From Protoeuglena noctilucae (lineage: Eukaryota), in NCBI GenBank assembly GCA_958009085.1, contig OY253690.1, forward strand, positions 124,001 to 188,000: a stretch of 64,000 nt of DNA, given 5' to 3'. The number at the start of each line of letters is the position of its first letter. The first letter of the stretch is position 1. A program made the position numbers and the translations under genes. Below, one piece after another: positions 1 through 46,700 of this stretch. Below the pieces are notes generated by a model that saw nothing but the letters and a program-made list of their open reading frames with translations, searched no databases and had not been told where the DNA came from.

Positions 1-3000
1 GCGGGACGGCGACGACGATAGCACAGACGACCACGACCCTTCCCCACGCAACGCCGACGGCCGCAGCAGCTCCGGGGCCAGCAAAAGGTCCGCCGGGTCG
101 CGGTACTCCGCCCCGGGATTCGATCCGCGACCGCTCGGGGTGCCGGGGGAAACGGGGGGAGGTGCACCAGCGGGTGCGCCGGAACGTGCTGTGGCTGCAC
201 CGGAACGTGCTGTGAGCGAGTGGGGGCGCGTGGGGGTGACACGTGCTTCGGAGGATCTCAGAGAGAGACTTTGCAGATCTGTGCGATGACGATCGCGGTC
301 GTTTGCGGTGGTCCGTCGCAGCTGCATGCGCGCTGCTTGCGCTTGGGCCGCGTAGGTGAGACGTCGGTACAGAGCCATTCCCCACGGCAGTCCGATCTCT
401 TTCATCTGATTGAGGACTTGGCCGGTCAGGAGCAGGGAGATGATCTGGGTCTGTGGGGGAGGGGGAAGGGGGGGTGGGGGTTGAGTAGGTGGGGGGAGAG
501 TAACTGTGTAGTGAGGAGCAGGGAGATGATCATTGGCACCAGTCGATTATACAGTACTATTTACAGTGACCTAGTGCGCTACGCTCCACCACCAACACAG
601 CCACCCAACCCCCCGTCCCCACCCCCATCCCCCTCCCCCTCCCCAATGACCCTCTCTCGCCTGCAGCTGCGCCCAGTCCTTTCGTATGAACGCGATGTAG
701 AAGAGCGATATATTGGCGTTGAAGGTGAAGAACACGAACAGCCGCGTGGCCATGGCGTTGGTGAGGGAAGTGTCAGTGCGGTGCATCTCCCAGTCAGCAA
801 GGCGGGACGAGGCCCAGACGTACGCGGACTGCGATTGGAAATGGGTTACAAATCATGAATATATGTAATGTAATATATGATATTATAGTATTTATGATAT
901 GTTGCATCTCCCAGTCGGCAAGGCGGGACGAGGCCCAGACGTACGCGGACTGCGAGTTGTATGAAAAGAGGGATATGTTTTCAGTAAACATGTAGATATA
1001 GATATGTTATACATACAGACATATGCGATGGGACGAGGCCCAGACGTACGCCGACTGAGACGCAACAAGGTGACGGTGGACGAGATGCACCTGTACTACT
1101 ATCAGATACGAATCACATTGTCGTTATGAGTATTCTGAATCCAAAGCACATGTTCACCTGCGATACCGGGATGATAAGCCCGTTCAGCACCCCCGTCACG
1201 GTGCATGCGATGCAGCTATGCTACTGTTTCACCGATACTAATATTAAAACTACTATTGCTCAATATAAATCATATTCACCTGCGACACGGGTATGATGAG
1301 CCCGTTCAGCACCCCCGTGACCGTGGATGCGATGCGGGCGGCAGTGGCGGTGGTGACGGACCCGGGGGACCACAGAGTGGCGCCGAACAGGGAGCCGTCT
1401 CGCAAGTTGCTCTCGATCGTCTGCGTTGATTAGGGAGAGATAATGGTTAAGTGTTTGTTACTTTATCTATAAAGTTGCTCTCGATGGTCTGCGAATAGTT
1501 AGCCACGGCTGTTACCGCCGCCACTCAATCATTAACTCTGATCAAAGTACTTTAACTCAGTGTAACCACTATTCCTCGCCTGCAGCAGTATCATGATCCC
1601 CAGCGACGCGAGGCAGGACACGGCCAGCAGCGCCACGGATGCACTGGCACGCAATGTGCGCTGGAATGATGGGATGTAGTAGACGTCGCCATATGCGGCG
1701 AGGTCGGCCCTGCATGTGATAGGGGTGTGGTTATTAGTATTAATAGTGTGTTTTGTTAATATTGGCAGTCGTATACTAGTAATTAAAACGATAAACCCCA
1801 CTCCCACCAACAACCCCCCCTTCACTGGGGACTCCCCATACACACCTGATCTGCCTCTCCCTCGCCACCGCGTCCCTCCCCTTCATGTTCAGATTCAAAG
1901 CCTCGAACATCCACGCCATCACGCGGCGCTGCTTTCTGGCGTCCGCGCTGCTCAGCTGATCATCAATGCGAGCCACGAACTCTGGCCGCACCGATTGGGA
2001 GAGGGATTCCGAGGAGGGGCCCTGCTCCTGCGAGGATGGTAAGGGGGCAGGGGATATTGTTGGTATCTATAGTTTCACTGTTGATATGTATTATTGGGTT
2101 CTTGCTGTACCTCTTTCGAACATAGCAGTGGAGACGAACTGGGACCCTCATACATACCGAATAGCAATACTAACAATTATTGTTATAGTCATAATAACAA
2201 CAGTAAAAATAAACTCTTAACTCGCCTCCAGTCCGTTCTTCCATAAATATGCGTACCGCGCCTCCTGGGACCCCCACTGCGCCACCAGCCACACCGACCA
2301 CAGTGCCACGAACGCCGCAAATAATACCACCAAATACGTGTATCGGAAATCGAACCCCGATGATCCCCGCAAATCCACCACGTTCACCAGCACCGCCACC
2401 GCAAGGCCCAGCACTGTAGGGGAGGGAGTTGGGGAGTTAGTTGTTAGTAAATATGAATTGGTCATATGAATATGAATGCACTGCGGGGGTGTGTGTTAGG
2501 GGGGCTGATTGTCAGTAGTTAATATAAATGGATACCATGATATGATATGACTATACATTTACGTTTACCAGTATACTTCCATTCCACAAACAAGTACAGT
2601 ATCACTACACCCCCCCCCCCCTCCCAACACAACTATTACTCACCCGACGGCACAATGAGGCTCCTGGTTATAATAAATAATATAATTATATAATCATAAC
2701 CACAAACATCAACCCCCCAATCCACCCCTCACCCGAGGGCACGATGAGGCTACTAGCAAAACTATAACAATGCAGTAATCCTACTTAATTATCGAAAATA
2801 AGACTACAATTACTGATCGCTACTCACCCGAGGGCACGATGAGGCTCCTTGTGTAAGATTGCAGAAACGCAAAGTACAGCCCCCTCTCGTGCCCGAAATA
2901 GTCCATGACCTTCTGCAGAGGCTGACTTAACCATAAGTGGGGCTTGCACCAGAACCACGGGTCGTGGGTCCATGGGAAGGCCCATTCGCGGTTTAACTCG

Positions 3001-6000
3001 CTCAGTCCGGTGGGCTGAAGGGTGCGCACAACGTCCTTGGCCAGGCGGCCGGCCACCAGGGCTCTGAGTTACAAAAGGAGAGTCAGTGATTGCATTAAAG
3101 AATAATGGTTTTAAATTTTATCATGTGACTGTGTCTGTGTGTACCCCCAGTATTAATATGTCAGTAGCTCAATCATGCAGTGTGTCCCCTACCCCCAATC
3201 AACCCCCTCACCTCAAAAACACCTCCGCACCCCCATTCGCGTAGTCCACGCGGCCGTTGCGATCCATCGATTTCGCAGCTTTGGCCTCCAGCAGCGAATC
3301 CATGACTGCCAGCTTCTCGCTGTAACCGAAAGCGTCGTTGGGCTCCACCGACTGATACGGACCCACAAAGTACCTGGGGGGTGGGTAGAGTAGTATGTGG
3401 ATACTAGATGTAAGTATAGGGTTAGGTAAGTATAGCGAGAGGGTTTGTAACTTTTGATATCCACGATGTATAGAATATGGCTACACACATGTAAAGGACC
3501 GGTTATCGTTACTGCATCCGCGCACCACGCACAGTGCTATCCACTCTGATATGCGTTGTCGATAATAACATAATTGTATATCCTCCCACCCCATATCTCC
3601 CACACACCTCGGATACGGGTACGCCGTCCCCGCACACGCTTACCGTGCACATTGTTACATCACTAATTGTAATGTTATATGCTATATAACATTCCAACAT
3701 AACATCACAACATAACAACACATCCCTCCCATCCCCCATATCCCCCACACACCTCGGGTAAGGGTACGCCCTCCCCGGCCCGTCCACGTGGAACGCCAGC
3801 AGCGGGGCGTTTCTGACGAACTGCCCGCGCTTGAAACCGGCGGCGAAGGCCCCCTTGCGGGGATCGGGCCTTATCAGCGTGTGAAACCCCATCTTCTCTG
3901 CGTATAAGCCCAGTCTGTGTAATGGGCATCCGATGAACATCACGCGGCGGTGGAGGTGCGATAGGGGGACGCCGGCGAATGCCAAGAGGGGCTCGGGGAT
4001 GACTGGAGATCTGTGAAAGGGGAAGGGGTGGGGGGAGTTAGTGAATGGGTGAGAGGGGTAAGTGAGGGTGAGTGGGGTGGGGTGGGTGGGGTGAGAATGA
4101 GGGAGTATAAGTGAGTGGAGTGAGTATGGGCATCAGTTGGTGCTAAACCCATGCACACTACTAATGCAAATCCTACATTACATACTATTGATATACACCA
4201 TCCACCCACTCTCACCTCCTCTGCATGACCTGATCGGCGAACTCCCTCATCTCCCCCAAAACGGCGTCAAACGCACGCTCAAACTTCTCCACCACCGTGT
4301 AACCCATACCCACTCCGTAGGGCGAGTGGCGAGTGTCGTCATCGTTATCGTCGTTATCGCCATTATCATCGTTATTATAGCCCCTATCGCGACCTCGCTC
4401 CTTGCTGTTACCGCCCGCATTGCCACCCCCACCCGCACCCGCACCCTCATTGCCACCCGCCCCCGCACTTGCACTCCCACTGGCAGTTTCGCCGGCATCC
4501 CCGCCCGCATTGGCCGGCGCGACGCGGGGGTGGGGGCGGCGGCGGAGCTGCGGTGGTCAGCAAGGGGCGGGCAAGGTTAGTGCAGTCATCGCGTGAGAGA
4601 ATATTAATCGATGAATAAAATTGATCCAAATCTTGATGTCGGTATCGTTGGATTGATCGAATGTGATGAAAGACATAAACATGTACCAACATCGCCCCTC
4701 GCCTTGATCCCCCACCCCTCCTCCTGGGAGGCCTGCGCCTGCCGGGGCGCCAGTGCCTGAAACGGGGAACAAGGAATGGTAATATTATATTACGACTGCG
4801 ATCCCAGGGCGCTCAGCAGTCAGCGAACCTCAACAACCGTTTTTATAATATCATATATCATATAAAACATATACATTCGACTACACTCGCCTTGCTGACG
4901 GCCTCCCGCGCCCTCGCATCCATCATCGGCCTCTCCACCCTCTCCACCGCCACCATCCCCGCCCTCTGCAGCGAGTGCTTTAACGCGGCACGGGCGTGGG
5001 TGAGCAGACCGTAGCCCAGGAAGCACAGCCAGTCGTCGAGGATGAGAGCTTGGGAGGGAAGAAGGAGACGGGATAATAATTATAGTACTAATAGTGATAA
5101 TGATAACACAGCACGGGCGTGGGTCATCATCCCATTGCCCAGGAAACACAGCCAGTCGTCCAATATTAGAGCTGGGGGTGGGGGGAGGGAGGGGAGAACT
5201 GTAATAATCAGATAATATCGCGGATGGTCCAGCACCTCCGCTGCTGCGCGAGTGGAGAGAGCAATAGTGCTATTTGGTTGGTTTAAGTAAATAAGTAATA
5301 AATCAATAAATCAACACTGACCTGGTTTGATCCCGAACCCCCACGCCTCCCTCCTGACCTCCTTGTCGTCATAATCACCCATCTATCATAGTAGTATACA
5401 TATATACATACATACACAACCCACCTGGTTTGATCCCGAACCCCAACGCCTCCCTCCGCACTTCCTTGTCATCGTAGCCACACCCATCTTACATAGAAAT
5501 AAACGCATATCCATGTACCCAACCCAACACTGCTCACCTGGCTTGATCCCGAACCCCCATGCTTCTCTTCTGACCTCCTTGTCGTCATAAAACTCCTTCA
5601 CCGTGGCCAAATCCCCGTGAAGCACGTGGACCAGATGGGAGAGGCGGCTGGCGTACGCCTGGGGAGGTGGGTTAATGCTCGTTATCATTACAATCATAAT
5701 CAACAGTTAAAGTCCTCACCCTCGCTGTTTCTGTTATTATCACCTCATACTCCATCCACATCTCAAATGCAAATCATAGACTTACATAGTACTAGTAACA
5801 TAGTATAAGTAACACAGATGGCATTGGTGCTATAAGCATAACCACTCGCCTTGTTCTGCATCGGCAGCGCCGTTATCGTCGCCACGCACACCCCCCCTCC
5901 CTCGTCACCCCCCTCCCCCCCCTTAATCGCTCGTTTCTCGATCTCGCTGCATGGCGCTGGTATGTGCAATACCACCAACATGTCCGATGGCTCATTGGGG

Positions 6001-9000
6001 TCTCCCGTGTCGCTCGTGTACCCCATCCCGTTGCCCACCAGGCGCTCGCTGAACTCGTGCTCCAGCGTGCGCATCTGCGATTGGTATTACCTCCAAATCT
6101 GTACATGTATGGATCAATATGCAATATACAACTGTTGGTATCTCTACTACTTAACTCAACCTTCCCATCCAACACAACACCCCCGCTTACCACCCCATCA
6201 TCTTCCCGTATGTTCTCTATAAGTCACAATTACCATTAATAACACCCTCACAACAACACTCAATTATACGTTATACTTAAAGTCACTCGCCTTGTACGGG
6301 TCCCCCCCCCTCTTGATCTCCCCGTCCCCCCACCCCATCGCTGGCAATGTCGTCTCCATTACCACATCTGGATTGGTATCGGTCGAAAAAAGACGAGACG
6401 AATGCATAGAGTCGGTGTCGGGTGCATGGCTGGGGTGGCGGGCGGAGTGGGGGTGGCGGCGGGGGTGGGCTGGGGGTGGGGGAGGGAGAGTGCGGGGTGA
6501 GGAATGGTGGAGTGGGTATACATGCAAAGTATACTGGTTTGTATGTCAATCTGTTTATTTGTACTTATGTACACACATGTATAATTGTATAATGATACAA
6601 ATAGTGTTTGTGACACTAGTAATACAAATATATGTAAGACAGTCTCGCCTTGCTTGGTCCTCCTCTCCTCGATGCGGATGCGGACCAGCAGCACGATGTC
6701 CTCCTCGGCTATCTGAGAATGGATAGAGTGACATAGAATTTGAATAGGGAATAAAGCGTGAATGGATGACAGTAATTAGTTTATTGTAAAGTAGTTTATT
6801 GTAAACATGGCAAGTACGCTACACCACCCCATAATAAGCAACAACATACGCCCCCCCGCTCATCCGATTCAAACTCACCAGCCCCCCGTGCCCCTCCTCA
6901 AACAGCGGCAGGTTGAGCCAGGCCGGGTGTGTTTCGTAATCCATCACCGTCGCACGCACACGCAACAACCTCCCCGTATCCTCCGGACCACTCGCGCTCC
7001 CCGCGTGATCCACAGCTCCCTTCTTATGACTAGTAGTAGTATTGCCAGTTTTCGTCCCTTTGTTGCCGGCCCTGGGCTTGGCCCCGCCCAGCCCCCACGC
7101 CCCGACCGCCCCCCTCCGCTCCCCCGCTCCCCGCCCCACCGCCCCCGGCCCCAGCCACTCCGCCGGGAGCTTCTCCGGCGCTTCGTGCGCCAGCCACGCC
7201 ATCTCGCGCTCAATTGCGTGCGCCGCCGCGTTCAGCAGCTGTGGCACGCATCCGGGCCGCAGGTCCCAGGCGGCCCGGCGGGGGGGCGTGGGGTCGCGGG
7301 TTCGAACCCCGCCCGCGTCTCCCGGCGCCTTTGCGCCCCCCACGTCCCCCGGGACGTTGCGGGAGGCGAGGTTGGCCTCGTATCGCAACGCCTGCAGACG
7401 GGCGAAGTAGTCCAACAACACGCGCCGGTCCTTGAAGTAGCGGGGACTGAGGGAATGAAAGGGGAATCAATGTTAAAATAATGGTGAGAGAGGGGTGAGT
7501 GGGTGCATAGTATGCGTGCATGCATGCACGCTTTGATTGTGCAGTGAGCAATCGCCTGTATGACGGCTGACAATAACTAGTGAAATCAAACAAACATGCA
7601 AAGATGCGCATTAGTCACTTATTATTGCAATGATATGACTTCCTCTCTCACCTGTAGGGCCCCCACGGCTCGTCCCCCATCGCCGCCCCCCCACCCTCGC
7701 CCCCGCCCGCATCGGCATCCGATCCGCCGTCGTCATCCTCATAGAGCCGACTGACTGCGGGAAGAGGGAGAATGGAAGTATGTGTAAACAACAGCTCGCA
7801 CATCACCATCGACACTTACTCGTCGTGACGTCGATCGCCGTGCACACCGCCACCGGTACCCACACATCACCATCTACGCCCACACATCACCCTCTATAGT
7901 ATACTACCGTATATCACCCATAACTCACGTCTCCTCGCTCTCGACAGGTCCGCCCTGTCCGGATCGGTCACAAGCGGCGTGACGTCGATCGCCGTGCACA
8001 CCGCCAGCCCCGTCGGCTGCGGGGGCAGCACCTCTGCCAGAAACGACTTGGCCGGGTCTTTCCGTCTGTCTGACATGCGGGGGCTCAGGAAGTGAGCGGC
8101 GGAGGTGAGCCAGGTACGGGTGGTGCGAGTGGCTGCGGCGGTGGTGGTGGTGGTGGTGGCGGTGTTGGATCGCCAGGCTTTGTCGAAGCCACGGGGGAGG
8201 CTGGGGGTGGAAGGGGGAGAGGGGAGCTGGTGTTGTGAATGCATCACATTAGTCATATGTGCATGCTAGGTACTGGAACTACTAATTGTTGGTAGTTCCA
8301 AGCAACACCATCGACATGCTCAAGGGAACGCGTAGGGCATGCTATATATTAGTAACTATCATTAATACCAAACTTCTCACCGGTACGCGTAGAGCATGCT
8401 GTACACTTTGGCGAAGGCGATGCTCAGCGCCACGCGTGCGCAGGTGAGGGGGCGGGCCAGGCCCCTGGGGGGGGAGGGAAGGGGAGAGGGAGTGAGCGAG
8501 TAAGAGGGCAATGAAGTGAGTGAGGGAATGAGTGAGTGAGTGAGTGACAGAAACTTACACAGAGAATTAGTGTAAGTCGTGAGTAACGCTGTCCCCTCAT
8601 CACCTGACGGTGCCGGGCGCGTCTGATAGCTAGTAACTATGATAACAATCTAAACCGGTAACTAGTTAACGATCATTACATATGCTCTGATCATCATAAT
8701 TCGCCCATTGTCACCTGACCGTGCCGGGCGCGTCGTCTGGGAACATCCCCATCAAGCACGCCAGGCGAGCCATCTCCCTGTGAATAAGAGTCAGGGAGTG
8801 AGTGAGAGTAAGAGATAAAAGAGCGAGAGAGAGGAGAGAGGCAGGCGAGAGCGAATGCACCCCTGTTACCCCTCACTGCTACCACCACCCCACACACCTC
8901 ACTGCTACATCACCACCCCACCCCACCCCTCACTCGCACCACCAACCCCATTCAAATCACCCCCCAGCCTCACCACCCCACCCTCACCTGGGGCTCCTCG

Positions 9001-10515
9001 GCACCGGGATCGTATCGGGATGCGGCCTTGTTCGAAAATACACCGTGTAAGGATATGTCGACACCCTCGCAGCACGAATCTCCTCACCCACCCTCCCACC
9101 CACGCCCAGGCCCACGCCACTCACCCCACCCACGCCCACACCACCCATGCCGCCCACGCTTGCACCCACCCCCGCCCCCGCCTGTCCCGCCGCACCGGCA
9201 CCCGACCCCCCCATCCGATACAGCACGATTTGCACTTGGAATATGACACGTGGATTGGAAGTCTTGTTGCGTTGGGATCCCCTGTGTAGGACCAGCTCTA
9301 GCAATGCCTGGGTGTCGAGGTCGAGCTCGTTGTCAGTACCCGAGTCCCCTGTGCCGTAGGGGGTGTGGCTGCGGGCGAAGGGGTGGGATGGGGTCAGAGT
9401 TATTCAAGTGGGTGAAAGAGATGTGCGCGATGGGATACCATGCAGTCTGTGCCGTACGGGGTGTGGCTGCGGATGGGGGGTGGGGGGGTTGCAAGTGGTA
9501 ATCAGGAGACGGTGGCATTGAGTGAGCGATGCGTGCATCCTGCTTACTGTACCACTGTGATTAACTCACCGCACGAGGTCCGCCACCAAAGGATCTGCCG
9601 TGACGTCGACCTCTGCCGTGACCATGCACTGCTGCCCCATAGACACCAAATCGTCGTCCGTCAGCTCGCCCAGGCGGTCGCCCAGCAAGAGGCAGTCCAT
9701 GGACGTGCGCTGGGGGGAGAAAAGGGGGAGAGGGTAAGGGTTCGAGTCTTGCCCTGTATGTCACTCTTGCGGACCATCACACTCCCACCGCCCTCCCATC
9801 CCCAGGCAACCACCCCACCCCATGCAGCAACCACCCCACCCTACCCATCCATCCTCGCCTGTATGTCCTTCAACCGCCTCTCGAGCAGCCCATGGGCGTC
9901 GCTCCGAATCTTGACCAGCTCAGGGTCGTGGGCCGACCCCACGCCGCGCCTCCGCATCCGCTCGGCTGCCCGGTGCAGCGCGCCGTACCACTGCCCCGCC
10001 ATCTCCCGCTGCAGGCTCCGCGGCACGAGCTTGGGGAGCTGTCCCTCGAACCACGCCCTCTCCATCTCACATCGCGCGTCACGCCAGGCCTGCTGGATAC
10101 GGCGACGCACGCCGTCCGCGGAGGGACGCGGCGAGACCCCGCGGACGCACGAGTCCTCGGAAGCCAGGACGTCGAGGCCGAACCGGAAGATGTGAGGGAT
10201 GTGGCCGTCCTTGATCCTCACCACGCGCGTGCCGCTGCAGGAGCTTGGGGAGGAGATTCACGCGCGCAGGAGTTGTGCAGTCGCGGCGCGACGGCATACT
10301 ACCGCGCTCCTCCGCCACTCATATCCGAGCGCGGGACCAATCGCATCGCGACGCGAGCAAACAGCGTCGCTTCATGCGCAGGTCGAAGCACACGACCTCT
10401 CGCATCGCGACGCGAGGTCGGAGAGTCACCGCGTGAGGCGCCGGAACTGCGTATGATTCCTCACGCACCCGCGGTGGGAGCTGCTGCTGCTCCCGTCGTC
10501 CTGGGGCTTCGTCAT
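1..10515 (-). CDS. Anoctamin/TMEM16-like (Ca2+-activated channel/scramblase) multi-exon gene with a long N-terminal region; 3' end lies beyond the window
   Basis: Spliced exons encode anoctamin-type motifs: SQPLQKVMDYFGHERGLYFAFLQSYT (~2850-2930), WEMHRTDTSLTNAMATRLFVFFTFNANISLFYIAF (~685-795) and TQIISLLLTGQVLNQMKEIGLPW (~380-450), plus hydrophobic TM exons. Upstream exons (3200-10500) are on the same strand and linked by splice sites. The start at 10515 (MTKPQDDG) and the single-gene interpretation are tentative. Confidence 0.8.
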
Positions 10516-19273: not shown

Positions 19274-20905
19274 ATGTCGGCGACTGTGAGTGCGAAGACG
19301 TCGTCGGAGGGGGCGAGCGTTGGTGAGGCATGCGCAGGAGGGCTGCACCCCTTCGTTGGAGAGCGCAACCTTGCAGCGACATTTGGCGCGTCCCGCTGGC
19401 GCGCGCAGGGTGGGGCGACCTGACCGGGGAACTGCATCGCGAGATCCTGCGGCTGGTGCCCCTGCGCGACGCCACGGCGGCGCGGGGGGTGTCACCGCAG
19501 ATGCGCGACGAGGTGGACGAGGCGTGGAGGGCGTGGGGCATCCGGGCCACGGCGGAGGACAAGCGGGAGGACATCCGCGGACGCTTTCGTAATCACCCAT
19601 CTTTCGCGGAGCTCGACTTCAGTCCGCTGATGGTCTACGCGTTCCAGGGGTCCCACGTGCACCACCTGGCGAGCCTGGGGCTGTGGCGGCTGGCCCTGCT
19701 GGTGGCGATGGGGGCGGATGTGAACCGACGACTGAAGAGATCGTGGCCGGCGATGTCGTACTGCGCGGGGCGGGGGTGCGTGGAGGCGGTCAAGGCGTGC
19801 CTGGCGGTGGGGGCAGAGGTGGACGCGCCTGACAACGATGATTTTGGCTGGTGGACGGCGCTGGTGCATGCCGCATGGGGGGGGTCACGAGGCGGTGGTG
19901 GAGGCGCTGCTGGAGGCGGGGGCGTCGGCCCCGGTGTGGTTTTATGGCCAGGATCAAACGTTGGCAGCGGTGTGCGAGGGTCATCCGACGGCGGGCATCG
20001 TGCGGCGGCTGGTGGACGCGGGGGCGGACGTCGAATCTCGTTGTTACGGTCGTCCTGCCCTCTGCAATGCCGCGCGTCTCGGCAACGTGGCCGTGATGGT
20101 GGCCCTGGTGGACTTGGGGGTTGACGTGGCTGCGACTGATTTAATGGGGTGGACCGCGATGCACTGGGCAGCAAACGGAGAGGTTATGGGGTGGCTGGCG
20201 GCGCGGGGGTTGAGCGTCCATGGCAATAGTGGGGAGGACTCTCCGCTCCACTGCGCTTGCCGTCATGGCCGCCTTAACGCCGTACGCGCCCTGATCGAGC
20301 TTGGTGTGGACTTTAATCACAAGGACGGAGATGGTAAAACGCCTCTCCATCATGCGGTGTGCTTCCATAAAGAGCCAGAGGCCATGGAGATGACGCTGGT
20401 GCTGCTGGCGGCGGGGGCGGACATCAACGCTGTTGATGGGCGCGGCAGCACACCCCTGCACTGCGTCGGGCACGCTACGTGCGCGGACGTGCTGGTGGAC
20501 ACCGGGGCGGACCTGGAGGCGCGGGACCGGCAGCGCCAGACGCCTCTTTATCACGCGTTGTGCTTATATCCGGAACAAGAGGCCGTGGAGTTAACGCGGG
20601 CTTTGCTGGCGGCGGGGGCGGACATCAACGCTGTTGATGGGCGCGGCAGCACACCCCTGCACTGCGTCGGGCACGCTATGTGTGCGGACGTGCTGGTAGA
20701 GGCGGGGGCGGACCTGGAGGTACGAGACACAGAGGGCAAGACGGCCATCTATGCAGCCGCAACTTCCACGCGCAACAGGTCCGAGGTCGTGCTGCGACTG
20801 GCTGACCGTGGCGCAGATCTGGTCAACACGGGCGGGGAGCCGGGGCTTTTGATGCGCAAGGTAGAAGAGCTCCGGGCCGAGCGCAGCCCCAACCATGCCG
20901 ACTGA
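19274..20905 (+). CDS. F-box-like + ankyrin repeat protein, copy A (one apparent +1 frameshift at the G-run ~19877-19884)
   Basis: Exon 1 is 19274-19322 (MSATVSAKTSSEGASVG), intron 19323-19408, then WGDLTGELHREILRLVPLRDATAARGVS (F-box pattern) and many GAD...TPLH ankyrin repeats. The frame switch sits at T-G8-T, where copy C has a G7 run and reads ..GGHEA in frame. Confidence 0.8.
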
Positions 20906-23212: not shown

Positions 23213-26200
23213 ATGGGGGACTCCAGGTCCCGCTCCCGCTCCCGCGACCGCTACGGCCGGTCGGATAGCAGGTGCGAGTGTATATCGTGCCGCGACGGCG
23301 CGAAGCCATCGCATCGGGTGCCGCGGCGCCGCTCACGGTCCTCAACCGGCGCTGTGGGCGTCGAAGCCCGCCCCGGCGCTTTTGAGCCACCTCCCGCCCG
23401 CGCGAGCGCCGCGTCGTCATCATAATCACCCACTGCGTCTTTTGCAGGGACCGCCGCGAGCGTCGCGACGAGGACGCGTCGCGCCATCGCGACCGGGACC
23501 GCCGCGACCGCGACCGCGATGGTCGTCGCGACCGGGAGGCGGAGAGGGGCCGGGATAGGGACAGGGACGCGCATCGTGGCCGCGACTATCTTTGGGAGAG
23601 AGACGACCGCGAGAGAGATCGCCGGTCGGACCGGGAGAGGGAGCGGGAGCGGGAGCGGGAGAGGGATCGCCGCCCCATCGGCCGCGACCCGGGGTCTGCG
23701 AGAGCCGAGGGCGGGGCGGGGACGAAGGCCGCTTTGCCGGAACGGCGGGGTGACGAGGGCCGGCGAGGGGCGGACTCGGGGGGTCCGTTGCCCCATGGCA
23801 GGTGAGGCGGGTGGGTGGGTGTTGGGCTGTGAGCAAAGCATTGTGGGTGCAGGAGCGAGGTGTCGTTTCGTGTGGCGTGGTTAAAGGCTCTATATCCCTG
23901 CGATGCGTGCAGGGGCAACGGTGCTGCTGGGAGGGAGGGGTCGCGAGACCGGGGCGGGGAGGCGGGGACGGCAGGGGCGGTGGAGAGCGAGAACGGGGAG
24001 GGGCGCAAGGAGCCCATTTCTCTGGAGGAGCTGCTGAAGGTGAGCTGGGGTGATTGGGGTGATGTGATGAGAGTTGCTGTCATTGGGGTGATGGGAGCTG
24101 CTGAAGGAGAGAAGTGGTGATGGTTGGGTAGCATGAAGTGGTTCCGGCATGGAATAGGTCGACAGGTAGTACCTGCTTTGTACGCTGGTACAAAGCAGTG
24201 CATCTGCTGAGTTTGCCTAATTCACTCACCCCTCACCTCCCCTTTCATTCCTTCCCTCTCACCCCTCCCATCACATCCCTCATCCCTCTTATCCCCCTCA
24301 CCTCCCCTTCACCTCATCGCAGCGGAAGCAGGAGGAGGCAGTCGCGGCGGCCCGGCCGGTGTTTCTGACGAAGCAGCAGCGCCAGGAACAGGCGTTGCGG
24401 GCGCTGGAGGAGAGGCGGAGGGCCCGGGAGACGGAGCTGGAGGCCATGCGGTGAGGAATAAGTATGGATGGGGAGCGATTGGTACTAATTGTGTGTGTAT
24501 GAAAGGGTGTCGGTGCGGTGGGGGACAGGAGATGGAGCTGGAGGCCATGCGGTGAGGCACTGTGCATGGGGAGCATGGGGAGAGATGGGAAGAGAGGGTG
24601 GCGATGCGGTGAGGGATTAAAGGGGAACTGCCACCATGCAGTGTTGGCATGGTCGTCCTCATGTCACTCGCAGCCACCAGCACGCGTCGGTGCTAGATGC
24701 ACTCTTGTCCTGCACTATAACTGGTACTGCCAATTCTAGTAAGATTATGACAACTGATGTCCTATTATCCACTCGCAGCCACCCGCACGTGTCGGTGCTG
24801 GACGCCGAGATGCACAATCCCTTGTACTTCACAAGCATTGATAGCAAGACTAACATGTCCATTATTTGATATCTTTGCCTGCAGCCACCAGCACGCGTCG
24901 GTGCTGGACGCCGAGTTGCAGGAGGCCCGTCAGCGCGAGGCGCGTCTTCAGGAGGCCCAGGCATTGAGGGACCCCAGGGAGAGGGAGAAGCTACTGCAGA
25001 ACATACGGAGGACGTACCTGGGGGGAGGGCCGGTCAAGAAACGCAAGGCGAGTGATAAGCATGGGTGGTGAAATATGATGAATGATGCGGGTGTGATGGT
25101 GTGTAACAAAGGGGAGGGCCTGTCAAGAAACGCGAGTGCTATGAGGGGGGTGTTATGGGTGATGAGGGTAGGTTGGTATCTTGTACCTGGGGGGGATGGC
25201 CGGCCGAGAAACGGAAGGCGAGTGTAGATGGGGATGTGTTGTGAGAGGGTGGTGAGGGTGTGTTGGTAGTGAGGGTGTAGGCGCAAAGCTGTATGTGACT
25301 CCAACTCCACTCCCCTCATCCATGGCCCTCATCTTCACTCCTCCCTCTGCAGGTCACGGCGGGCCCCGAGCGCGACCGATTCAAATTCGAATGGGGAGCG
25401 GAGGAGGACACTCTCCGCGAGGCCAATCCTTTGTTGTCGCACGCCATAAACGGCGTGGGTGACGCTCCGCTGTTGTTCGGTCGCGGGACGAGGGGTGGGG
25501 TGGACCGGGAGCTGCAGATGAGGGAGAACGTGGCGAAATCAGCGGAGGCGAGTGGTGGATGAGAATGTATACGGTGATAGTAGTTATAGTAAATATAGTA
25601 ATATAGTGATAGTAATACAGTGATAGTGACCGGGAGCTGCAGATGAGTCAATGAGTGGTGATGGTGGATGCAGTGACGGTAATAGTTATAGTGACGGTGA
25701 CATTAAGAGAGCGTCCCTTCGTTCTCCCCAGACCCTCAAGCGTTATCGCACGGAGGAGGAGATCAAGTCATTGGCGGAGATCGGGAGCAAGGACCACTGG
25801 TGAGAGCCAATTATAGGCGATGGATAATATATAGATGATTTATACATATACACATATATACATATGGTGAGGGTGGGGGAGATCAAGACGCTGGCGGAGA
25901 TCGGGAGCAAGGACCACTGGTGAGAGGTGGATGTAATTTATGTATCGCGATGTCATTACGGGTATCGGTATTTTCGTCGTCATCTTCATCCTCACATCAT
26001 TTCGACAATTTAACATGATATTAATATTATTATAATAGTTTTTTGATAAAATGATAATATTATGATAAAATATATTATGGGTATTTGTGGTGTTGCAGGG
26101 ACAAGCGCGAGAAGGGCAGCCTGGCCAAGATCAAGCATTGGTCGGAGAAGAAACTCGAGGACATGGACCAGAGGGACTGGAGGATCTTCTTCGAGGACTT

Positions 26201-29200
26201 CTCCATCTCGTACAAGGCGAGTGTCATGTGCTATGGATTGACTGTTTGCTTTCAGTCATGCCACCCAACCCCTTGGCACTCCACTCTCCACCACACCCCA
26301 CCCAGCCCACCCAACACCCCACGCCCTCACACCCCCCCACACCCTCACCCTCACCCCACACATCCCCCCACACCTTCCCCCCCCCCAGGGCTCCCACGCC
26401 GACAAGCCCCTGCGTTTCTGGCACGAGATGCGCGTGCCCAAGGCAGTCCTCAAAGCCATCGACCGATTGGGCTGGAAGGACCCCTCCCCCATCCAGCGCG
26501 CCGCCATACCCCTCGGCCTATCCATGCGCGACGTGATCGGTATTGCCGAAACGGGTTCTGGCAAGACGTGCGCGTTCGTGGTCCCCATGATTGCGTTCAT
26601 CGCCAAGCTGCCCAAGATGACCGACGAGGTCGCGGCCAATGGGCCGTACGCCATCATCATGGCGCCGACGCGGTGAGGGATGATTGGTGGTGGGTGATGG
26701 TTGTATTTATAAGTGAGAATGGGTGGTGGGGTGGTGATGAGTGGTGTGGGTGAGGGTGACGGTGATGAGTCAGGGTGGGTGATGGATGGCAGTCACCCTA
26801 ACTGCTAAACAGTGAGCTGGCCCATCAGTTGTGATAGGCTCTCTTAGTATAAGCTAATCATAACTTCCCCCCTCTATCTCCCCCTCAGTAAGCTGGCCCA
26901 GCAGATATCAAATATAGATAGTGAGTAGCCTCTACTTAAATTACCCAATCCTCTGTTCTTCCCAGTGAGCTGGCCCAGCAGATTGAGGAGGAGACGCGCA
27001 AGCTGATGCACTACTCCGAGTACCGATGTCTGTCGGTGGTGGGGGGGGAGTCCCTGGACGTGCAGGCGTCCGCGCTGAGGAGGGGGGCGGGTGAGCGGTG
27101 ATGTCAAAGACCACAGCATTGAGATGGCACAACACGTGTCTGTGTGGGTGTGTAGGTGTGTGTGCGTGTGGGTGGGTGAGTGTGTGGGTGTGTGTGTGCG
27201 TGTGGGTGGGTTAGTGTGTGTGTTTGGGTGGGTGGGTGGTGATTGGCAGATGGGCAGGCGTCCGCGCTGAGGAGGGGGGCAGGTGAGCGGTGGGTGGGTG
27301 TTGGTGGGTGCAGGTGGTGGGTCACAGACTGTAAAATGCAGGGATTTGCGCAGTGCTAAAAAGCGTAGACACCTCTCCTAGTATCGTCTTACCAATTACC
27401 ATCTACTTAAATCCCATCCGCAGAGGTGGTGATTGCCACGCCCGGCCGCGTGTGTGACCACATCGAGCGGCAGTACCTGGTGCTGAGTCAGTGCAACTAC
27501 ATTGTGCTGGATGAGGCGGATCGGATGATCGACCTGGGATTGGAGCTGCAGGCGAGATGATGGGGTGGGGTGGTGCGGGCGGGTAGGGATGGTGTGGAGT
27601 GGTGAGGGGTGATGTGGTGCAGGTGAGGTGAGCTAAAACAGTCTATGTTGTTTTTGTCACTATTGCTAATAGTAAGATTCTTTGTGCGCCCCTGAGGCAA
27701 TCGCAGGTCAACCAGGTGATGGACGCGATGCCCAAGGGAAAGCTGAAGCCCGAGGCAGAAAATGCCGAGCTGGACCCCACGGCCATCTACCGCATCACCT
27801 ACATGTTCAGGTGAGATTGACAATAGAGCATGTGCCAAGTCACCTACATGTTCAGGTGAGATGATGGGATGTTTAGATGGGGTGGACGGGGCATCTGCCG
27901 AAGAGTACGCTTGACTTGCACCCACAACGACGGATAAAAACACTTACTTCCGCACCCGGAGACACACACCCACACCCACACCCACACCCACACCTACACC
28001 CACCCATACACACTGTCTGCTCTCTCCCCTCAGTGCCACGATGCCCCCCACGGTGGAGCGCATCGCCAAGAAGTACATGCAAACACACACATACACATCA
28101 CAAAAGAAAGATATAGATACACCAACTCTCTCTCTTTTCCTGTTCTTTCAGTGCCACGATGCCCCCCACCGTGGAGCGCATCGCGAAAAAGTACATGCGC
28201 AATCCGGTGGTGGTGACGATCGGGGTTGCGGGCGACGCAGGGGCCAACATCACGCAGCGCATCGTCATGGTCAGCCCAAGCGAGAAGGACCCCACGCTGT
28301 TCCGGTGAGTGAAGCATAGAGTATGGTAAATGTTTTATCATCTGTGTTCGTGAGAGGGACGTTACGCTGCGCCAGTGAGAATGGTGCTTACTATGCGGTC
28401 GCAAGATACGACATTGTACTCAACACGTTGCAACTCGACCATTTCCCCTCATCGCCCCCTTTGCATCCTTGTCCTCTTCCTTAGGTTCCTGCGAGAGCTT
28501 CTTGCAGACACGGCAGACAACAACTAGGTCCTTGTCATTGTTATTGTCGTTGTGTGTAATAGTAATTAGTAACTATACTTGTGCATCTCCTCTCCCCCAG
28601 GTTCCTGCAAGAGTTCTGGAACACGGCGGACGACAAGAAGGTCATTGTGTTTGCCAACACCAAGGCCACCTGCGACATCGTGCAGAGGTCGCTCGAGAGG
28701 CAGGGATACTCGGTGTCGGTGCTGCACTCGGGGAAGGCGAGTGGGGTTATGGCAATATCAATGGTGATAATGTCATTGTTAATGATGTTATATTATCACT
28801 GTGATTGTCAATACCTATAAGATGGCGCTCGAGAGGCAGGAGTACTCGGTGTCCGTGCTGCACTCGGGCAAGGCGAGTGGTTATATATGATCGATGTCAG
28901 TGTTATTATATGTCATTGTATGTCAATATGAATACCCATCTCATAATATGGCGTGGGAGAGGCAGGGGTACTCGGTGCCGGTGCTGCACTCGGGGAAGGC
29001 GAGTGGTAAGTGTTCGCGGCAATGCCTGTGTGTGTAATTGGCAATGCCCACCACCCTCTGCCTTGTGTCTCGTGTCACCCCATCCCACTCCCTGCCTCTG
29101 GTCAGCATCCATGTCCCACTCTCTGTTCCCCACCACCCCTATGCAGACCCAGGAGGCCCGCGAGCACGCCATCCGCTCCTTCCGGGAGGGCGCCAACAAC

Positions 29201-30292
29201 GTGCTATTGGCCACGGACATCGCCGGGCGGGGCATCGACGTGCCGGACGTGTCGCTGGTCGTCAACTACGAGATGCCGCAGAAGGTGAGGGGGAATCGAT
29301 AAACAGTTATCTGATAATAATGGATGATGCCGCAGAAGGTGAGGGTGGATGAGATGCTGGTGATGGACTCGCAATTGAGTAGGAGAAGCCGCAGAAATTG
29401 GCAGTGTGGCGGCAGTCATACACGCGCCCCGTGGTGCCATTGCCAGCACCCTGACGGGACTTCCCCAATGCCCTGCCATGCATTAAGTGATTGCGTGCTG
29501 CCGTCACCATGCACCCCACGCCCCTCTGCCCCCCCATGCCCCTCCCCCACCCTGCGTACTCTTGACTGCCTGCCGCCGTCAGGCACCCCACGCCCCTCTG
29601 CTCACCCCCTCTGCCCACCCCAACCACCCCACGCCCCTCTGCCAACCCCAAGCATCCCACGCCCCTCTGCCAACTCCAAGCACCCCACGCTCCTCTGCTC
29701 ACCCCACCCCGTGCGCAGATCGAGCCATACACACACCGCATCGGGCGCACGGGACGCGCGGGCAAGAAGGGGACGGCCGTGTCCCTGGTCACTGCGGGGG
29801 ACTCTGTCATCTTCTACGACCTCAAGAAGCTGCTGGAGGTGAGGGGTAGCATGCATGGTGTGAGGTCATCTAATGTGACCTGAGGAGGCTGCTGGAGGGG
29901 TGAGGGGGCGTGAAGGAGCATGCATGGTGCGAGGGCTGTGGTGCTTGGGTAGTGGCTGCGACCTCGTGAGAGGCGCAGGGTGGGTGGGTGGAGGTGCAGG
30001 GTAGGGTGGGTGCGGGCATGCAGTGCGTGTGTTGTGCGCGATGCATTGTGCAGCAACATGCAGCTCTCCGCACTCCCCCGCACACATGCGCTGAGCGGGA
30101 CCTGGCATGGTCGACCTGTGCTCGTTTTTAAATGTGGCACAAGTACTGCGCCCCTGGATATCGAGGGGTGTGTGTTGTCGTGATCGGCTTGCATACCTGT
30201 GCTGTCCATGTGCACCGCAGAAGGCCAAGCAGCACATCCTACCCGAGCTCGCACGCCACGAGGCGGCACAGAGGCCAGGCGGGGGCATGTGA
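23213..30292 (+). CDS. PRP28: DEAD-box RNA helicase PRP28/DDX23 (U5-100K), ~17 exons
   Basis: RS/RD-rich N-terminus, [92 protein letters not shown] and [13 protein letters not shown]. Confidence 0.95.
29511..29705 (+). repeat. Intronic minisatellite, ~5 copies of CACCCCACGCCCCTCTGC with variable spacers
   Basis: Copies at ~29512, 29584, 29625, 29653 and 29681 inside a PRP28 intron. Confidence 0.8.
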
Positions 30293-32612: not shown

Positions 32613-33242
32613 CGAGCTAGCAGACGGAGGAGGGCTGCTGGAGGGCCGCGGGCGATAGTAGCAAGAGATAGGTCTGCGACCTTGGGCTCTGTTGAATGGC
32701 AGTCAGTGAGTCATGCTTAGTTGTGGTGGTACCATGGGGTAGCGTCGTTTGCATGTGGCTCAGGCAAGGCAGTGTGGGGTTGGATGGTTGACTGGGCGAT
32801 GCGTCTGTGCTAGGAGGGCGTGGGACATGAGCGAGCGGTGGGCGTGACTGCTGATGCCTTTGAAATGCAATGCAGCTTTCCATAGAACGCCACCAGCGTG
32901 TGAATAGGCCATGCCATCATCTTCGGCCTTGCGCCCGGGCAGCAGGGCAGAGGGTTTTCAATCATTGTCTGCACGCGCACAGTTGACGCAACAACACGTG
33001 CACGAACCCATCTGCATCTTCAAAGCATGACAGCGGCCCGCGGTGGGCCGCATCATGATAGCCGTGCGGTGGGTCTAGGGTCGCAGCACGTCACAACGAC
33101 AGCATGCCGTCAGCACAGGAGCGTGGCGCGGCACCGGGCCCCGCAAACTCGCTATCGCTGCGCGTCTTCCTTGCACATCATTTCTTCAGCGCAGCGCGTC
33201 TTCTTTGCACACCAGTGCACATCAGCTCCTTATCGCTGTGCG

Positions 33243-42300: not shown

Positions 42301-43417
42301 ATGGCGCCGTTCCCTGCCAAGGTCGCGGTGGTCGGCTCCGGCAACGTGGGCCTGACCCTGGCCAAGGGCTTCAGGCAGCACGGTAAGCAAGACATGTGGC
42401 ATGCACATCGATCTGCGTGCCGTGCTCCCCCGGCCGCTGGGCCCCGCGCAACCTCCAACTGCCTTGCTGCAAACGCAGGGGCCGCAGTGTTCGTCGGGAC
42501 GAGGAACCCGGGTAAGTGGCACCGTGCGATCATTCCGTGTCACAAACAGATGCCGATGCGATAGGGGAGGACTCGGATACTCTTGCGATAGCGGAGAAAT
42601 CGGACATTGCAAGCGCTAGCGTAATACCCCCGCGCACATGGCGACGCAATAACGAATATCCCCGCGCACATGGCGACGCGTGCACGCAACTAGCCACGGC
42701 GCCGTGCCATCCCAGAGAAGCTCGGCGAGTTTGCGTCCAAGCACCCGGACATCACCATCGGGGCCCCCGCGGACGCCTGCGCGTTCGGCGATGTGGTCGT
42801 TTTGGCCGTCCCCGGCCACGCGGCCAAGAGCGTAGCTCAGGACGTGAGGACGCAACTGCAGGGCAAGATCGTTATGGACACCAACAACCCGATTAGCGGC
42901 GTGGGTCCGGGCGGCGTGTTCAAGTGAGTTTCCCCGTTCTCGATTCTCGCTTTCCACTCCCCAAAGCACAGCTGCATCCGCAATGTATCCCTGCGCCTCC
43001 ATCCCTTGCCATTCTCGCATTCCATTGCCCAAATGCAGCAGCACCCGCAGTGTGTATCCCTGCGCCCCCATCCCCCTCCGCAGCTACTTCACGGATCGCA
43101 ACAGCAGCCTGCTGGAGATCCTGCAAGCGGAGGTGCCGGGCGCGCGCTGGGTCAAGGCGTTCAACAGCGTGGGCGCGGAGATGATGGTCAACCCTGCCCT
43201 CCCGGGCGGGCCCCCGACGATGTTCATTTGCGGCGACGACACCGAAGCCAAAGCCGTCATCGCGGCCATCTGCGTGGCGTTCGGGTGGGACCCTCTTGAC
43301 ATGGGCGTGGCTGCGGCTGCTCGCGCCATCGAGCCTCTCTGCCAGCTCTGGTGCATCCCCGCAATGACCAAGGGCGAGCGGACCTGGGGGGCGTTCAAAT
43401 TCCTCAAGTCGGCGTAA
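42301..43417 (+). CDS. NADPH-dependent F420 reductase-like / COG2085 dinucleotide-binding oxidoreductase
   Basis: Exons 42301-42382, 42479-42511, 42716-42923 and 43084-43417. Motifs KVAVVGSGNVG (Rossmann), DVVVLAVP, GKIVMDTNNP, VKAFNSV, ICGDDTEAK and GWDPLDMG...ARAIEPL. Confidence 0.9.
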
Positions 43418-43726
43418 GGGCACTCGCCAGGGTGATTTACAAGCAGTTTTGCAGGCAGTTTGCAGGACAGGGATGATAGGGATGCACTTGTACAGCGTGC
43501 TGTGTCAGTCGACCTGGGTCGTGCGTATGCTTGAAACGCGACATTGGGCACAGCATTCGATCATACGTCGCGCATCACACAGACAGTCTAGAAGTACTAA
43601 CCATCGCATGCCCGGCCCTGGTCCAGTGGTCGACCCAACGTGGGTTACCCTACCCAGTGCATGCCTGGCCCTGGTCCCTATGTCCCTACTTGCAAATAGC
43701 CATCGCCTCGAGTTACATGGGTTACC

Positions 43727-46700
43727 CTACTTGCAAGCAGCGATCGCCTCCGCGAGCCTCGCCGCGACCGCCCCGTGCACGTGCGCCCCCTCGGCCGCCA
43801 CCCTCGCCTCGCACACCGCCAGCGCCGCCCGTATCCCCTGCCTGTCCCCGATTGCGGCCATCGGCGCAAACACCCTCACGACCAGCAGCGTCCGCGTCAG
43901 GTCGGTGAACGGCCCCGCTGCGTGGGTGAAGCGCGGGCCGCCCCCGCCCGCATGCCCACCGCACGCCTGTGCGGACAGCTGCTCCTCCGGCGACGCCCAC
44001 GCCTCCAGCACCTCCCTCAATGCCGCTGCAGCTGCCGGGGCTATGCGCGACGCCCAGGGTAGGTGGGCTAAGGTGCTGATGCGGCTGCGTACCCAATCGG
44101 CCACCAGGGCGTGTAGCGTCGAGTCCTCCCGGTGCTGGTTGTCTGGACGATGGACAGGGTTGGCAGAGTAGCTAGTAGCATAAGTAGTAGCAAGGGGTTT
44201 GGGGTTTGCATGGCAAAACTATATTCTATACATTATATACCTCTCACCGGCCTCCCGATCGAAGATCTTCTTGGCGTGCCGGTCGACCTTGGCCCTCACG
44301 TGCAGGGGGATGTCGTGAGCAGAGACGCCTGATGTGACGACCGAGGGGGGGCAGCCCAGGAGCCAAGAGACCACCACGTGAGGCCTGAGAGACAGAGATA
44401 GTAGCAGAGCGTGCTTGTTGCAGTGCATGTTTGTTTGAGTTGTAGCTTGGCTAGTGCTACTGCATGTGACGGTGGCCGTCGGCGTGCGGCATATGGCCCT
44501 GCTGCTGACGTTAACAATCATATTTACCATAAATGAGTATGCAAGTGACACTAACACTGACACCAATGAGTTTCTTAATATGCCTCACCGGCACCCCATG
44601 AGTGCTTTGGCCGCCTCCCCCATGGCTCCCCTGAGCACGGCGTCGGGCGTCTCATAACGCGACCCCTCGCGCCCCACCGCCAGCGCCACCGTCTGCGAAG
44701 GAAGGGCAAGGAGGGCTTAAGATGAGATATATCTAAATTATGTGCAGGTGTGCCAAGAGACACGTTGCTGCCATGGATTGACCCATTGTTGTTTTGCCAC
44801 TGGCTACATGCTTCCACCCCAGCTGTGGCTCACATGGCAGGCTATGCATCCATCGAACTATACAACACAACTATCATTCACTTAATGTCCCAATCTTTCA
44901 GTCACCTCCGCCGCATGTCTCCTGACGGCCGGCTCCTCATCCTCCAGCAGATCGAGCGCCAGTGACCAACACCGTGCCGACCAATCCACAGTTACATCGT
45001 CACCCACAGTAGCACTACCAACGCTGACCTCGCTCCCCACGCCACCCCCACCCCCACCACCCCCACCAGCTCCACCACTCCCACCACTCCCACCAGCTCC
45101 ACCACCCCCACCCGCCAAACCACTCCCATACTGTCCCCCGCCGTCGCCACCGCCCCGCTTGCCACCCCCCAGTGCATGCGGAAGCAGCCCCAAGGCTCTC
45201 AGCGCCATCGCCGCCCCCAAGCGCATCTCCTCCACCTCCCCAGGCGCACCCATCGACTCCACACGAGACAAGAAGCCCTCAATCACTCGACTGAGCTCAG
45301 GAGATACATTGGCAACACTGGTACCCGTCGCTGCACCCGTCACTGCACCCGTGCCCACACCTACCCCCACTCCCGCCCCAGCCCCAGCCAATGCCGATGC
45401 CAGTGCCCGGCCCAGCGCAGCCGCCAGGCACCGCGCCCCCTCCCGCGCCACCCTGGGATTGCCCTCCCCGTCCAAAACGCCAGAAAGCACCCCCCACGCC
45501 TGGGGCCCAGGCGCAGCCGCCCCCGCATCCATCACCGCCGCCATCACCCGCAACAACCGCCGACGCGCCTTGTAGCTCCCCTCCTTGCCCACGTGCGACT
45601 CCAACAGCCTCATTACAGCGTCGGGATCCTCCAAATAACCCCGCAACCGATCCGCGGGGCCCGGCGACGGCCCCGGGGTTTCCGACGCCGTCGCCGGCGT
45701 TTCTGGCGCGACAGCGAGGGCGGCGAGCGTCCCGTCCTGCAAACCCTTGAGCCCCGCCGCTCGGACGTCCTCGTCGCCACTGGACAGCAGCAATCGCACG
45801 TCCGCCAGCGTCACACGAGGGCCGAGAGTGGTGGCCACAGCGACCAGCGCTAGCAGCAGCATCACTGGTACCAACGCCGTCGCTGTGAGTGATGTCCCTG
45901 TGAGTGCTGTGACTAGCCCGTGGGGCAAAGCGAGGATCGAAGTGGGCCCTCGCCGCGCGGGCACGGAAGCTCGAACCCCCCACGTCGCACGCATCCGGGC
46001 AGGTGGTGCGTTGTGCGGATGATGTGAGGACTTCCGCAGTGATGGCGCGGATGGCGATGGCCACTTGCTCGCGGAGAGAGCGTGCCGATGCGGCTACGGT
46101 GGTGGTGGTGGTGGTGGTGGTGGCAGTGGCAGTGGTAGTGGTGGTGGCAGTGGCAACCACTGAGCCATCGCTGTGTGACTCGGCACCCGCAGTTGATGCC
46201 ACAGCGTTGGCAGTCTCAGCTGGGCTGTCTGTGTCTGGGGCAGAGTCGGCCCCACGGGCGATGTCCTCCAAGGCATCGTGGCACAGGAGGAGCACCTGAG
46301 TGGAGATAAGAATGGAGACAAGTGAGAGTGAAGACCATCGACAGTATTTGATGTAATCAGATACTCTAGTTACTCCATGGTTACTCCACAGCAGAGTCGT
46401 GATGAGCAGCGACATGGCCGTGCAATCAAAAAAACCGCCAAACGCAAACAATCCATCTCGTCATTCATCATTACCCCAACCCCAACCACCCACTCGCAAA
46501 CTCGCCTCCAGCACCGCCTCCGCCACCGGGCCCGGCGCACTGCCCCCTCGCGCCAAATGCAGCGCCGGCTTGAGCCCCTCAAATACCCTCCCACACAGCG
46601 CCACCGCCACGCTTGGTGTCGCCCCCCCCGCCACCCCCTCCATCAGACCCCCCAGCACCAGCAGCGCCCCGTGAGCCTCGTTCCAGGGCAGTGCTCCCGA

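Follow-up and report, generated by a model that had tools for sequence, protein, structure and literature searches.

How does an intron come to hold several copies of its own two borders? The question is raised by an intron on the minus strand (829..1279) of a 64,000 nt stretch of Protoeuglena noctilucae DNA (assembly GCA_958009085.1, contig OY253690.1, positions 124,001 to 188,000; hereafter the window, to which all coordinates refer), within a gene that encodes an anoctamin (TMEM16). Intron gain and growth is a long-standing open question, and introner transposition, AGGT tandem duplication and filler insertion at breaks each leave a characteristic scar. The scar described here is a different and very regular one, found in roughly three of every four introns examined, and the relatives of the genes concerned are without these introns or have short, plain ones. 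The term echo is used for an intronic copy of that intron's own exon border, including the splice signal.

The intron is 451 nt long (GT..AG, starting GTGAAT and ending in the acceptor TCGCAG) and separates exon a (1280..1420; 47 codons, phase 0 at both ends, assigned from its open reading frame (ORF) and sequence), which ends ...IASTVTGVLNGLIIPVSQ, from exon b (661..828; 56 codons, followed by a GC donor at 660). Within it, AT-rich spacers alternate with GC-rich echoes. A sequence-only reading of the window had reported that the start of the downstream exon recurs twice here, and the end of the upstream exon, with its donor, once; all three copies were recovered at the same positions by a repeat search and by our own scan. 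In the direction of transcription, the real donor block (1271..1335, from the repeat search; last 56 exon bases and first 9 intron bases) is followed by a 57 nt AT-rich spacer (1214..1270, GC 0.28) and then by the donor echo (1149..1213), which is identical to the real block at 57 of 65 positions and retains CAG/GTGAAC. One of the eight differences is intronic; of the seven in the 56 exonic bases, six are synonymous third-position changes and one is a second-position change (Ser>Cys), a recount that agrees with the count first given. An inner stretch of 100 nt (1058..1157) runs from the echo donor (GTGAAC) to the innermost echo acceptor (TCTCAG). Acceptor echo 2 (1030..1057; 27 of 28 positions identical to 804-831) has TCC>TCG as its sole exon-part difference, and the intronic TCGCAG is changed to TCTCAG. 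An AT-rich spacer (956..1029) separates it from acceptor echo 1 (903..955; 52 of 53 positions identical to 782-834, with GCT>GCC as the single difference and TCGCAG retained). The last spacer (835..902; 68 nt, AT-rich, GC 0.21, with a pyrimidine-rich 3′ end) lies directly upstream of the real acceptor block (782..834, from the repeat search; last 6 intron bases and first 47 exon bases). The spacers of this intron (57-77 nt) could be aligned neither with one another nor with the sequence that follows (z ≤1.6; z 1.5 for 1214..1270 against the stretch after the donor echo), and Tandem Repeats Finder reported nothing at 780-1500.

The neighbouring intron (1421..1585, minus strand; 165 nt, GC donor) carries an acceptor echo, also picked out by the sequence-only reading, at 1472-1493. 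It matches the real block 1404-1425 at 21 of 22 positions, the difference being ACG>ACC, and retains TCGCAG. In the next intron downstream (451..660, minus strand; 210 nt, GC donor), 511-531 copies exon bases 425-445, and a G-rich arm (455-477) is 87% complementary to a C-rich arm (617-639); the related protein P0002 is without this intron. An Rfam scan of 1-10000 gave only hairpin-like, microRNA-precursor-like matches over 446-654, far below threshold.

A wrong frame would undo the synonymy of these changes. Gene, strand and frame were upheld by the Pfam Anoctamin (PF04547) match to exon b and by collinearity of exons a and b with the related proteins P0002 and P0005, and the changes stay synonymous. 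Three exon pieces match successive parts of the PF04547 profile: 574-852 (E 3.7e-11, profile positions 177-231, exon b), 2220-2495 (E 9.9e-6) and 2823-3068 (E 1.5e-6), the last two each alone slightly below the curated cut-off. The window's first 4.5 kb contain the 3′ part of the gene, whose exons are GC-rich (third-position GC about 0.7-0.9) and whose introns are AT-rich; nine of its introns lie inside the window. One of these (2028-2225, GC..AG) is supported by an RNA contig, the sole RNA joint obtained.

Is this structure a peculiarity of one intron? A search of the whole window for pairs of at least 20 nt, 25-800 nt apart, yielded 77 local direct repeat pairs, whereas 20 block-shuffles gave 0 or 1 apiece, and chance is therefore excluded; only 5 local inverted pairs were present. 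Some of the 77 are low-complexity tracts or protein repeats (ankyrin at 20.0-20.7 kb and 31.9 kb; a 207 nt coding repeat at 56.7-58.0 kb), and the remaining direct pairs lie at exon-intron borders, on both strands and in several genes. Counts were then restricted to echo pairs inside a curated set of 22 introns, 9 from the anoctamin gene and 13 from a helicase gene. At least one echo is present in 16 of the 22, with 24 echoes in total. The sequence-only reading had described the echoes in one anoctamin intron and its neighbour; the structure is there, and it is shared by most of the curated introns of two genes. The observation is real and statistically overwhelming, and the intron at 829..1279 is one instance of a pervasive pattern.

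The polarity first seen in that intron, with donor copies nearer the donor and acceptor copies nearer the acceptor, holds across the curated introns: the 5′ half of the intron contains 12 of 15 donor echoes and the 3′ half contains 9 of 9 acceptor echoes, and donor echoes precede acceptor echoes in all three introns that have both kinds. Intron length rises with echo number, the medians being 163.5, 294.5, 375.5 and 442.5 nt for introns with 0, 1, 2 and 3 echoes.

The window as a whole is a GC mosaic, in which stretches of 50-57% GC (1-9600, 24000-30000) hold intron-rich genes and stretches of 63-71% GC have no AT-rich islands. The coding tandem repeats occupy 56682-58042 (period about 207 nt) and 20008-20720 (about 201 nt, within an ankyrin-repeat ORF). 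Short near-exact direct repeats also occur away from obvious exon borders, at 33156-33211 (period 34 nt), 42623-42679 (32 nt) and 43684-43750 (41 nt), possibly in intergenic or untranslated sequence.

What kind of event leaves such copies? Each takes in the splice signal with 13-68 bases of exon and, as a rule, 4-12 of intron; two exceptions have longer intron parts (19 bases at 3589/3734; 34 bases at 39317/39459). The duplicated blocks measure 20-74 nt and the spacers between them 22-153 nt of unique sequence (GC 0.21-0.64), G/T-rich after donors and pyrimidine-rich before acceptors. In 23 gapped comparisons, a spacer was set against the next spacer or the following stretch. No alignment was obtained in 19 of the 23 (z ≤2.4), even beside copies that are 94-100% identical. 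Three of the aligning spacer pairs lie inside three-copy arrays (5320-5590, 28690-29007, 52182-52517), in which the stretch after the last copy is not alignable, and the fourth is a partial match of a spacer to the sequence following (24457-24527 with 24558-24640). The layout of an array is thus n border copies with n-1 spacer copies.

A plain tandem duplication across the exon-intron border, of the type known from intron 7 of human F7, followed by neutral decay with unusually fast divergence of the spacers, would give the observed head-to-tail order and polarity. It would also suit the alignable spacers inside three-copy arrays, the 34 intron bases retained in the pair 39317/39459, and the array at 5320-5526, which was the only one called by Tandem Repeats Finder (period 103, 79% matches). 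It accounts poorly for the 19 unaligned spacer comparisons, some beside copies that are fully identical, and for arrays with n-1 rather than n spacers, and the anoctamin intron is absent from the Tandem Repeats Finder output. Where spacers do align they diverge by about 20%, which equals the divergence at third codon positions, so they are not hypermutable. This explanation is improbable.

A mobile-element origin was also considered and rejected. When 35 spacers were compared with the window, only short GT-rich low-complexity matches were found, giving no family or source within it. A test for terminal inverted repeats was negative in 21 of 22 introns, which had no end complementarity beyond a G-rich 5′ and C-rich 3′ composition; one intron gave z >3.5.

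The account we lean towards, and to which we give a slightly better than even chance, is a duplication with filler anchored at the splice junction, enlarged by unequal exchange, in an intron that is spliced at its outermost sites. A short piece of sequence across a splice junction would be laid down again 45-260 nt deeper into the intron, with unrelated intron-like filler (22-153 nt) placed between the two copies. The source would most simply be repair of a DNA break at the intron border. Unequal exchange between existing copies may then have added further units. A primary copy-filler-copy event followed by such exchange, in that order, would leave n copies with n-1 spacers. The spliceosome would join the outermost donor to the outermost acceptor and remove everything between as one long intron, so that the echoes would leave the protein unchanged while introns lengthen from about 150-200 nt to 300-450 nt. 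On balance, the echoes are probably non-coding, partial duplicates of the intron's own two borders.

Are the echoes in fact kept out of the mRNA? The helicase gene occupies 23900-30200 on the plus strand, encodes a DDX23/PRP28-like spliceosomal DEAD-box protein and has at least 13 introns, 5 of 13 with GC donors. These 13 were fixed by requiring collinearity with the protein of its closest relative, the metagenomic locus L001 (83% identity over 82 residues). Joining the outermost sites at all 13 junctions gives a protein that runs along the L001 protein without gap or insertion, and the helicase echoes show up just as additional, weaker tblastn matches. In the anoctamin gene, the junctions between exons a and b and between 3753 and 3373 are collinear with P0005, P0002 and P0001; P0005 has 11 residues between two conserved motifs at the former, the same as the spliced window gene. 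The collinearity with relatives excludes the echoes from the coding sequence, and the outermost donor and acceptor are predicted on these alignments to be the pair that yields the mRNA. Each echo spans one exon edge, and none combines a splice signal at each end with a usable frame.

Alternative or mutually exclusive exons were ruled out by the frames and by these one-sided splice signals, and inclusion would insert residues absent from the relatives. A role in splicing could take other forms, with the echoes acting as recursive (ratchet) donor sites, as decoys or enhancers that define the border, or as alternative exon ends. An AG/GT form can regenerate a 5′ splice site in recursive splicing, and donor echoes whose exon part ends in AG have this form. 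AG stands directly before the aligned donor position in 16 of 21 donor echoes, 14 of which then have an intact GT or GC; AG at this position is also the ordinary exon-end consensus. The splice dinucleotides are retained in 30 of 33 echoes (GT or GC in 18 of 21 donor echoes, AG in 12 of 12 acceptor echoes), and the inter-echo spacers of 22-153 nt may be added in favour of a function. That level of retention is, however, what neutral divergence of about 5% predicts. Five of the 21 donor echoes are without AG, acceptor echoes are unable to regenerate a donor, and no echo forms a complete exon with both splice sites and a compatible frame. Inclusion of an echo would break the collinearity with relatives, which splice, or lack, the same sites without echoes. 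Recursive sites known to us are, in addition, not copies of the upstream exon, whereas the donor echoes are. A function in splicing seems quite improbable, slightly more so than plain tandem duplication.

The relatives also bear on when the copies arose. Scanning metagenomes with a helicase exon as query gave 80 loci. In L001 and four others (about 70% identity), all of the helicase exon pieces lie in one frame of a single uninterrupted ORF, so that the 13 introns were either gained in the lineage of the window or lost in all five relatives. Across the 80 loci, local repeats mostly number 0-0.5 per kb, compared with about 4 per kb for the window's helicase gene, and no exon-border copies were present among the repeats of the 7 relatives' loci inspected. 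For exon b, neither the scan of metagenome contigs nor a word-index protein search gave a relative; an exhaustive protein search found P0002 and P0005. The relatives retrieved are thus without these introns, or have one of 102 nt that is free of echoes. Two GC-rich relatives' contigs show a tandem duplication of another kind, in which the last codons and stop of the neighbouring gene are repeated (L022, 2210-2357, period 81 nt; L024, 2830-2895, period 37 nt).

The 102 nt case comes from P0002, which aligns to exon a, continues with 34 extra residues and then aligns to exon b. The extra residues start with Val-Thr, finish with Thr-Gln and contain no repeated peptide, and would fit a phase-0 GT..AG intron of 102 nt read through by the ORF caller. 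Subtracting the three unit lengths (122, 105 and 121 nt) from the 451 nt of the window intron leaves 103 nt. The closeness of this remainder to the echo-free insert of P0002 suggests a short ancestral intron (about 102-103 nt) enlarged by three units. The inner 100 nt stretch (1058-1157) is similar in size to the insert, and may correspond to it.

The copies could be false if collapsed or mis-joined haplotypes had produced local duplications in the assembly. However, contigs assembled from marine metagenome short reads of another study cover 805-955 and 926-2610 with 0 differing letters, and a third covers 2661-5660 with 1 differing letter. These carry the copies unchanged, so the copies are real DNA, and the pattern is a regular one that respects strand and follows splice junctions in several genes. 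The probability of an assembly artefact is practically nil.

Do the echoes decay as dead copies should? Thirty-four comparisons of real border and echo, drawn from the window pairs with six real copies each used twice, were scored by codon position; protein repeats, low-complexity tracts, short intergenic tandems, pairs of unfixed frame (37601, 52182/52363) and a few unclassified pairs were dropped. The exon-part differences number 15, 15 and 56 at codon positions 1, 2 and 3, and the neutral third-position share is estimated at about 0.47-0.55. Since only synonymous changes are open to the real exon, position 3 should carry some excess, and for the same reason synonymous differences alone are no proof of selection on the copies. 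The two regions behave differently. The helicase gene has 7, 8 and 12 differences (0.049, 0.056 and 0.081 per site), with 11 synonymous and 14 non-synonymous codons, a split that fits neutral decay of the copy. Judged by eye against L001, it is mostly the echo whose amino acid has changed (E>K at 26886, K>R twice at 29877, G>E at 28826), with one case in which the echo matches L001. In region 1-9600, where the intron at 829..1279 lies, there are 5, 4 and 35 differences (0.033, 0.027 and 0.240 per site), with 33 synonymous and 7 non-synonymous codons.

Several observations weigh against the junction-anchored duplication, and the first is this contrast. The two regions differ (Fisher p 0.004), and 35 of 44 differences at third positions in 1-9600 exceeds the neutral share of 0.47-0.55 with p between 1e-5 and 6e-4, uncorrected for shared real copies. 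Dead copies should not show such a synonymous excess, and no simple model explains it. The three-copy donor array at 5320-5590 (minus strand) is a case in point: between its distal copy and the real exon end there are 5 changes, every one synonymous and at a third position; the real exon has A-ending codons where both echoes carry G; and third positions also account for most of the differences between the two echoes at 5320-5470. At 7824-7852 (minus strand), an exact 29 nt copy of the exon-internal sequence 7978-8006 is followed by a strong GTAAGT donor; by eye, it looks like an exon end with an in-frame deletion of 45 nt and the donor in the same phase. The duplication model also gives no account of why the intron-side edge of the copies lies close to the splice site, or of where the filler comes from. 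Retention of the splice dinucleotides fits young neutral copies and selection equally well. Lastly, use of the outermost sites in the intron at 829..1279 is predicted from homology only.

Taken at face value, the echoes of 1-9600 have changed several times more slowly than the synonymous sites of the real exons, and either they derive from a diverged but working form of the gene or they are under constraint. Gene conversion keeping the copies alike was rejected: by argument it cannot lift the third-position ratio above about 2, and a third-position divergence of 24% implies that conversion is rare.

The first of these options amounts to a separate explanation, in which the echoes, at least in 1-9600, were copied during break repair from a diverged functional version of the gene (a haplotype, allele or paralogue) and rejoined out of register. 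A copy from a diverged working gene would differ from the resident exon as two working genes do, and its adjoining intron would be unrelated. The per-site differences in 1-9600 are of this kind, as are the 11 of 35 third-position changes that are C<->G (by eye), which is typical of substitutions filtered in coding sequence rich in third-position GC. In the 5320-5590 array, the distances are additive (real to distal 5, between copies 6, real to proximal 11, with two further codons included), and the in-frame 45 nt length difference with preserved donor phase at 7824-7852 would also be explained. So would spacers that are intron-like in polarity yet cannot be aligned. Against this, no second copy of these genes was seen in the metagenome contigs, where the scan gave no relative of exon b. 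The pairs 782/903 and 27795/27840 are near-identical at third positions and still have unalignable spacers, which a donor copy of recent divergence would not explain. The helicase echoes are without such a bias, and the counts are small and partly non-independent. We consider this origin unlikely. Slightly less doubtful, and put forward tentatively, is a combination of the two accounts: an active junction-anchored mechanism that re-copies borders, adds filler and enlarges or perhaps seeds introns, with the copies in the low-GC region taken from a diverged working gene and forming a fossil series of older or foreign forms of the flanking exons.

If the pattern extends across the genome, it would provide a datable series of events, each unit being aged from its differences, and a natural experiment on how splice sites are chosen, a single transcript holding dozens of duplicate donors and acceptors that are intact. 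It would also be a warning for gene predictors, because echoes resemble exons. The synonymous excess in one gene region is directly testable by comparison of strains.

How does the pattern compare with known systems? In the model of Rogers, introns are reportedly created by tandem duplication of an exon segment containing AGGT. As in that model, a local duplication supplies duplicate splice signals in the window introns, and the material between is spliced out with the mRNA unchanged. The model predicts that the 5′ end of the intron is a copy of the downstream exon start and the 3′ end a copy of the upstream exon end, whereas the reverse was found in all 24 echoes of the 22 introns. In addition, each copy in the window already contains the intron-side splice signal. 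Together with the opposite polarity, this indicates that the duplications struck existing introns. Intron creation by AGGT-containing tandem duplication is described in Hellsten et al. 2011 (PMC3265369) and in a report on a potato RdRp case (PMC4974935).

Introners, according to excerpts of two papers, are multi-copy families with target duplications of 3-9 bp and often terminal inverted repeats (PMC9860276, PMC3879977). The window shares with them lineage-specific intron-rich genes, GC as well as GT donors and short border duplications, and the same excerpts place introners in marine picoplankton. It differs in its spacers, which are unique within the window, in its longer blocks (20-74 nt) and in the absence of end complementarity in 21 of 22 introns. 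Intron-rich regions of low GC are known from the BOC1 introns of Mamiellophyceae (PMC3879977) and the low-GC centromere regions of Pelagomonas calceolata (PMC9481584). As far as the available passages of these papers go, the resemblance lies in GC-rich exons, AT-rich unique introns and frequent GC donors, and in intron-dense stretches (50-57% GC) beside intron-poor genes of 65-70% GC. BOC1 introns are defined there as shorter than 75 nt, and those passages of either paper make no mention of border copies. No published description of exon-border copies inside introns was found in the literature searched, which was a limited library.

The nearest single case is the 37-bp minisatellite in intron 7 of human F7, whose first unit is reported to span the exon 7 donor (PMC1557585). 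As there, each unit holds an exon end with its 5′ splice site, and the copies are intronic and lie downstream of the authentic site. In F7 the 5′-most site gives the normal mRNA, and the outermost sites would do likewise in the window. The F7 repeat is reportedly confined to one locus and to the donor side, and is head-to-tail with no unrelated spacers (PMC1557585). In the window, the first unit spans the border and every unit has a splice copy, as in F7, but unique sequence separates the units, both donor and acceptor sides are involved, and most introns of several genes are affected. The pattern points to an undescribed way of intron growth.

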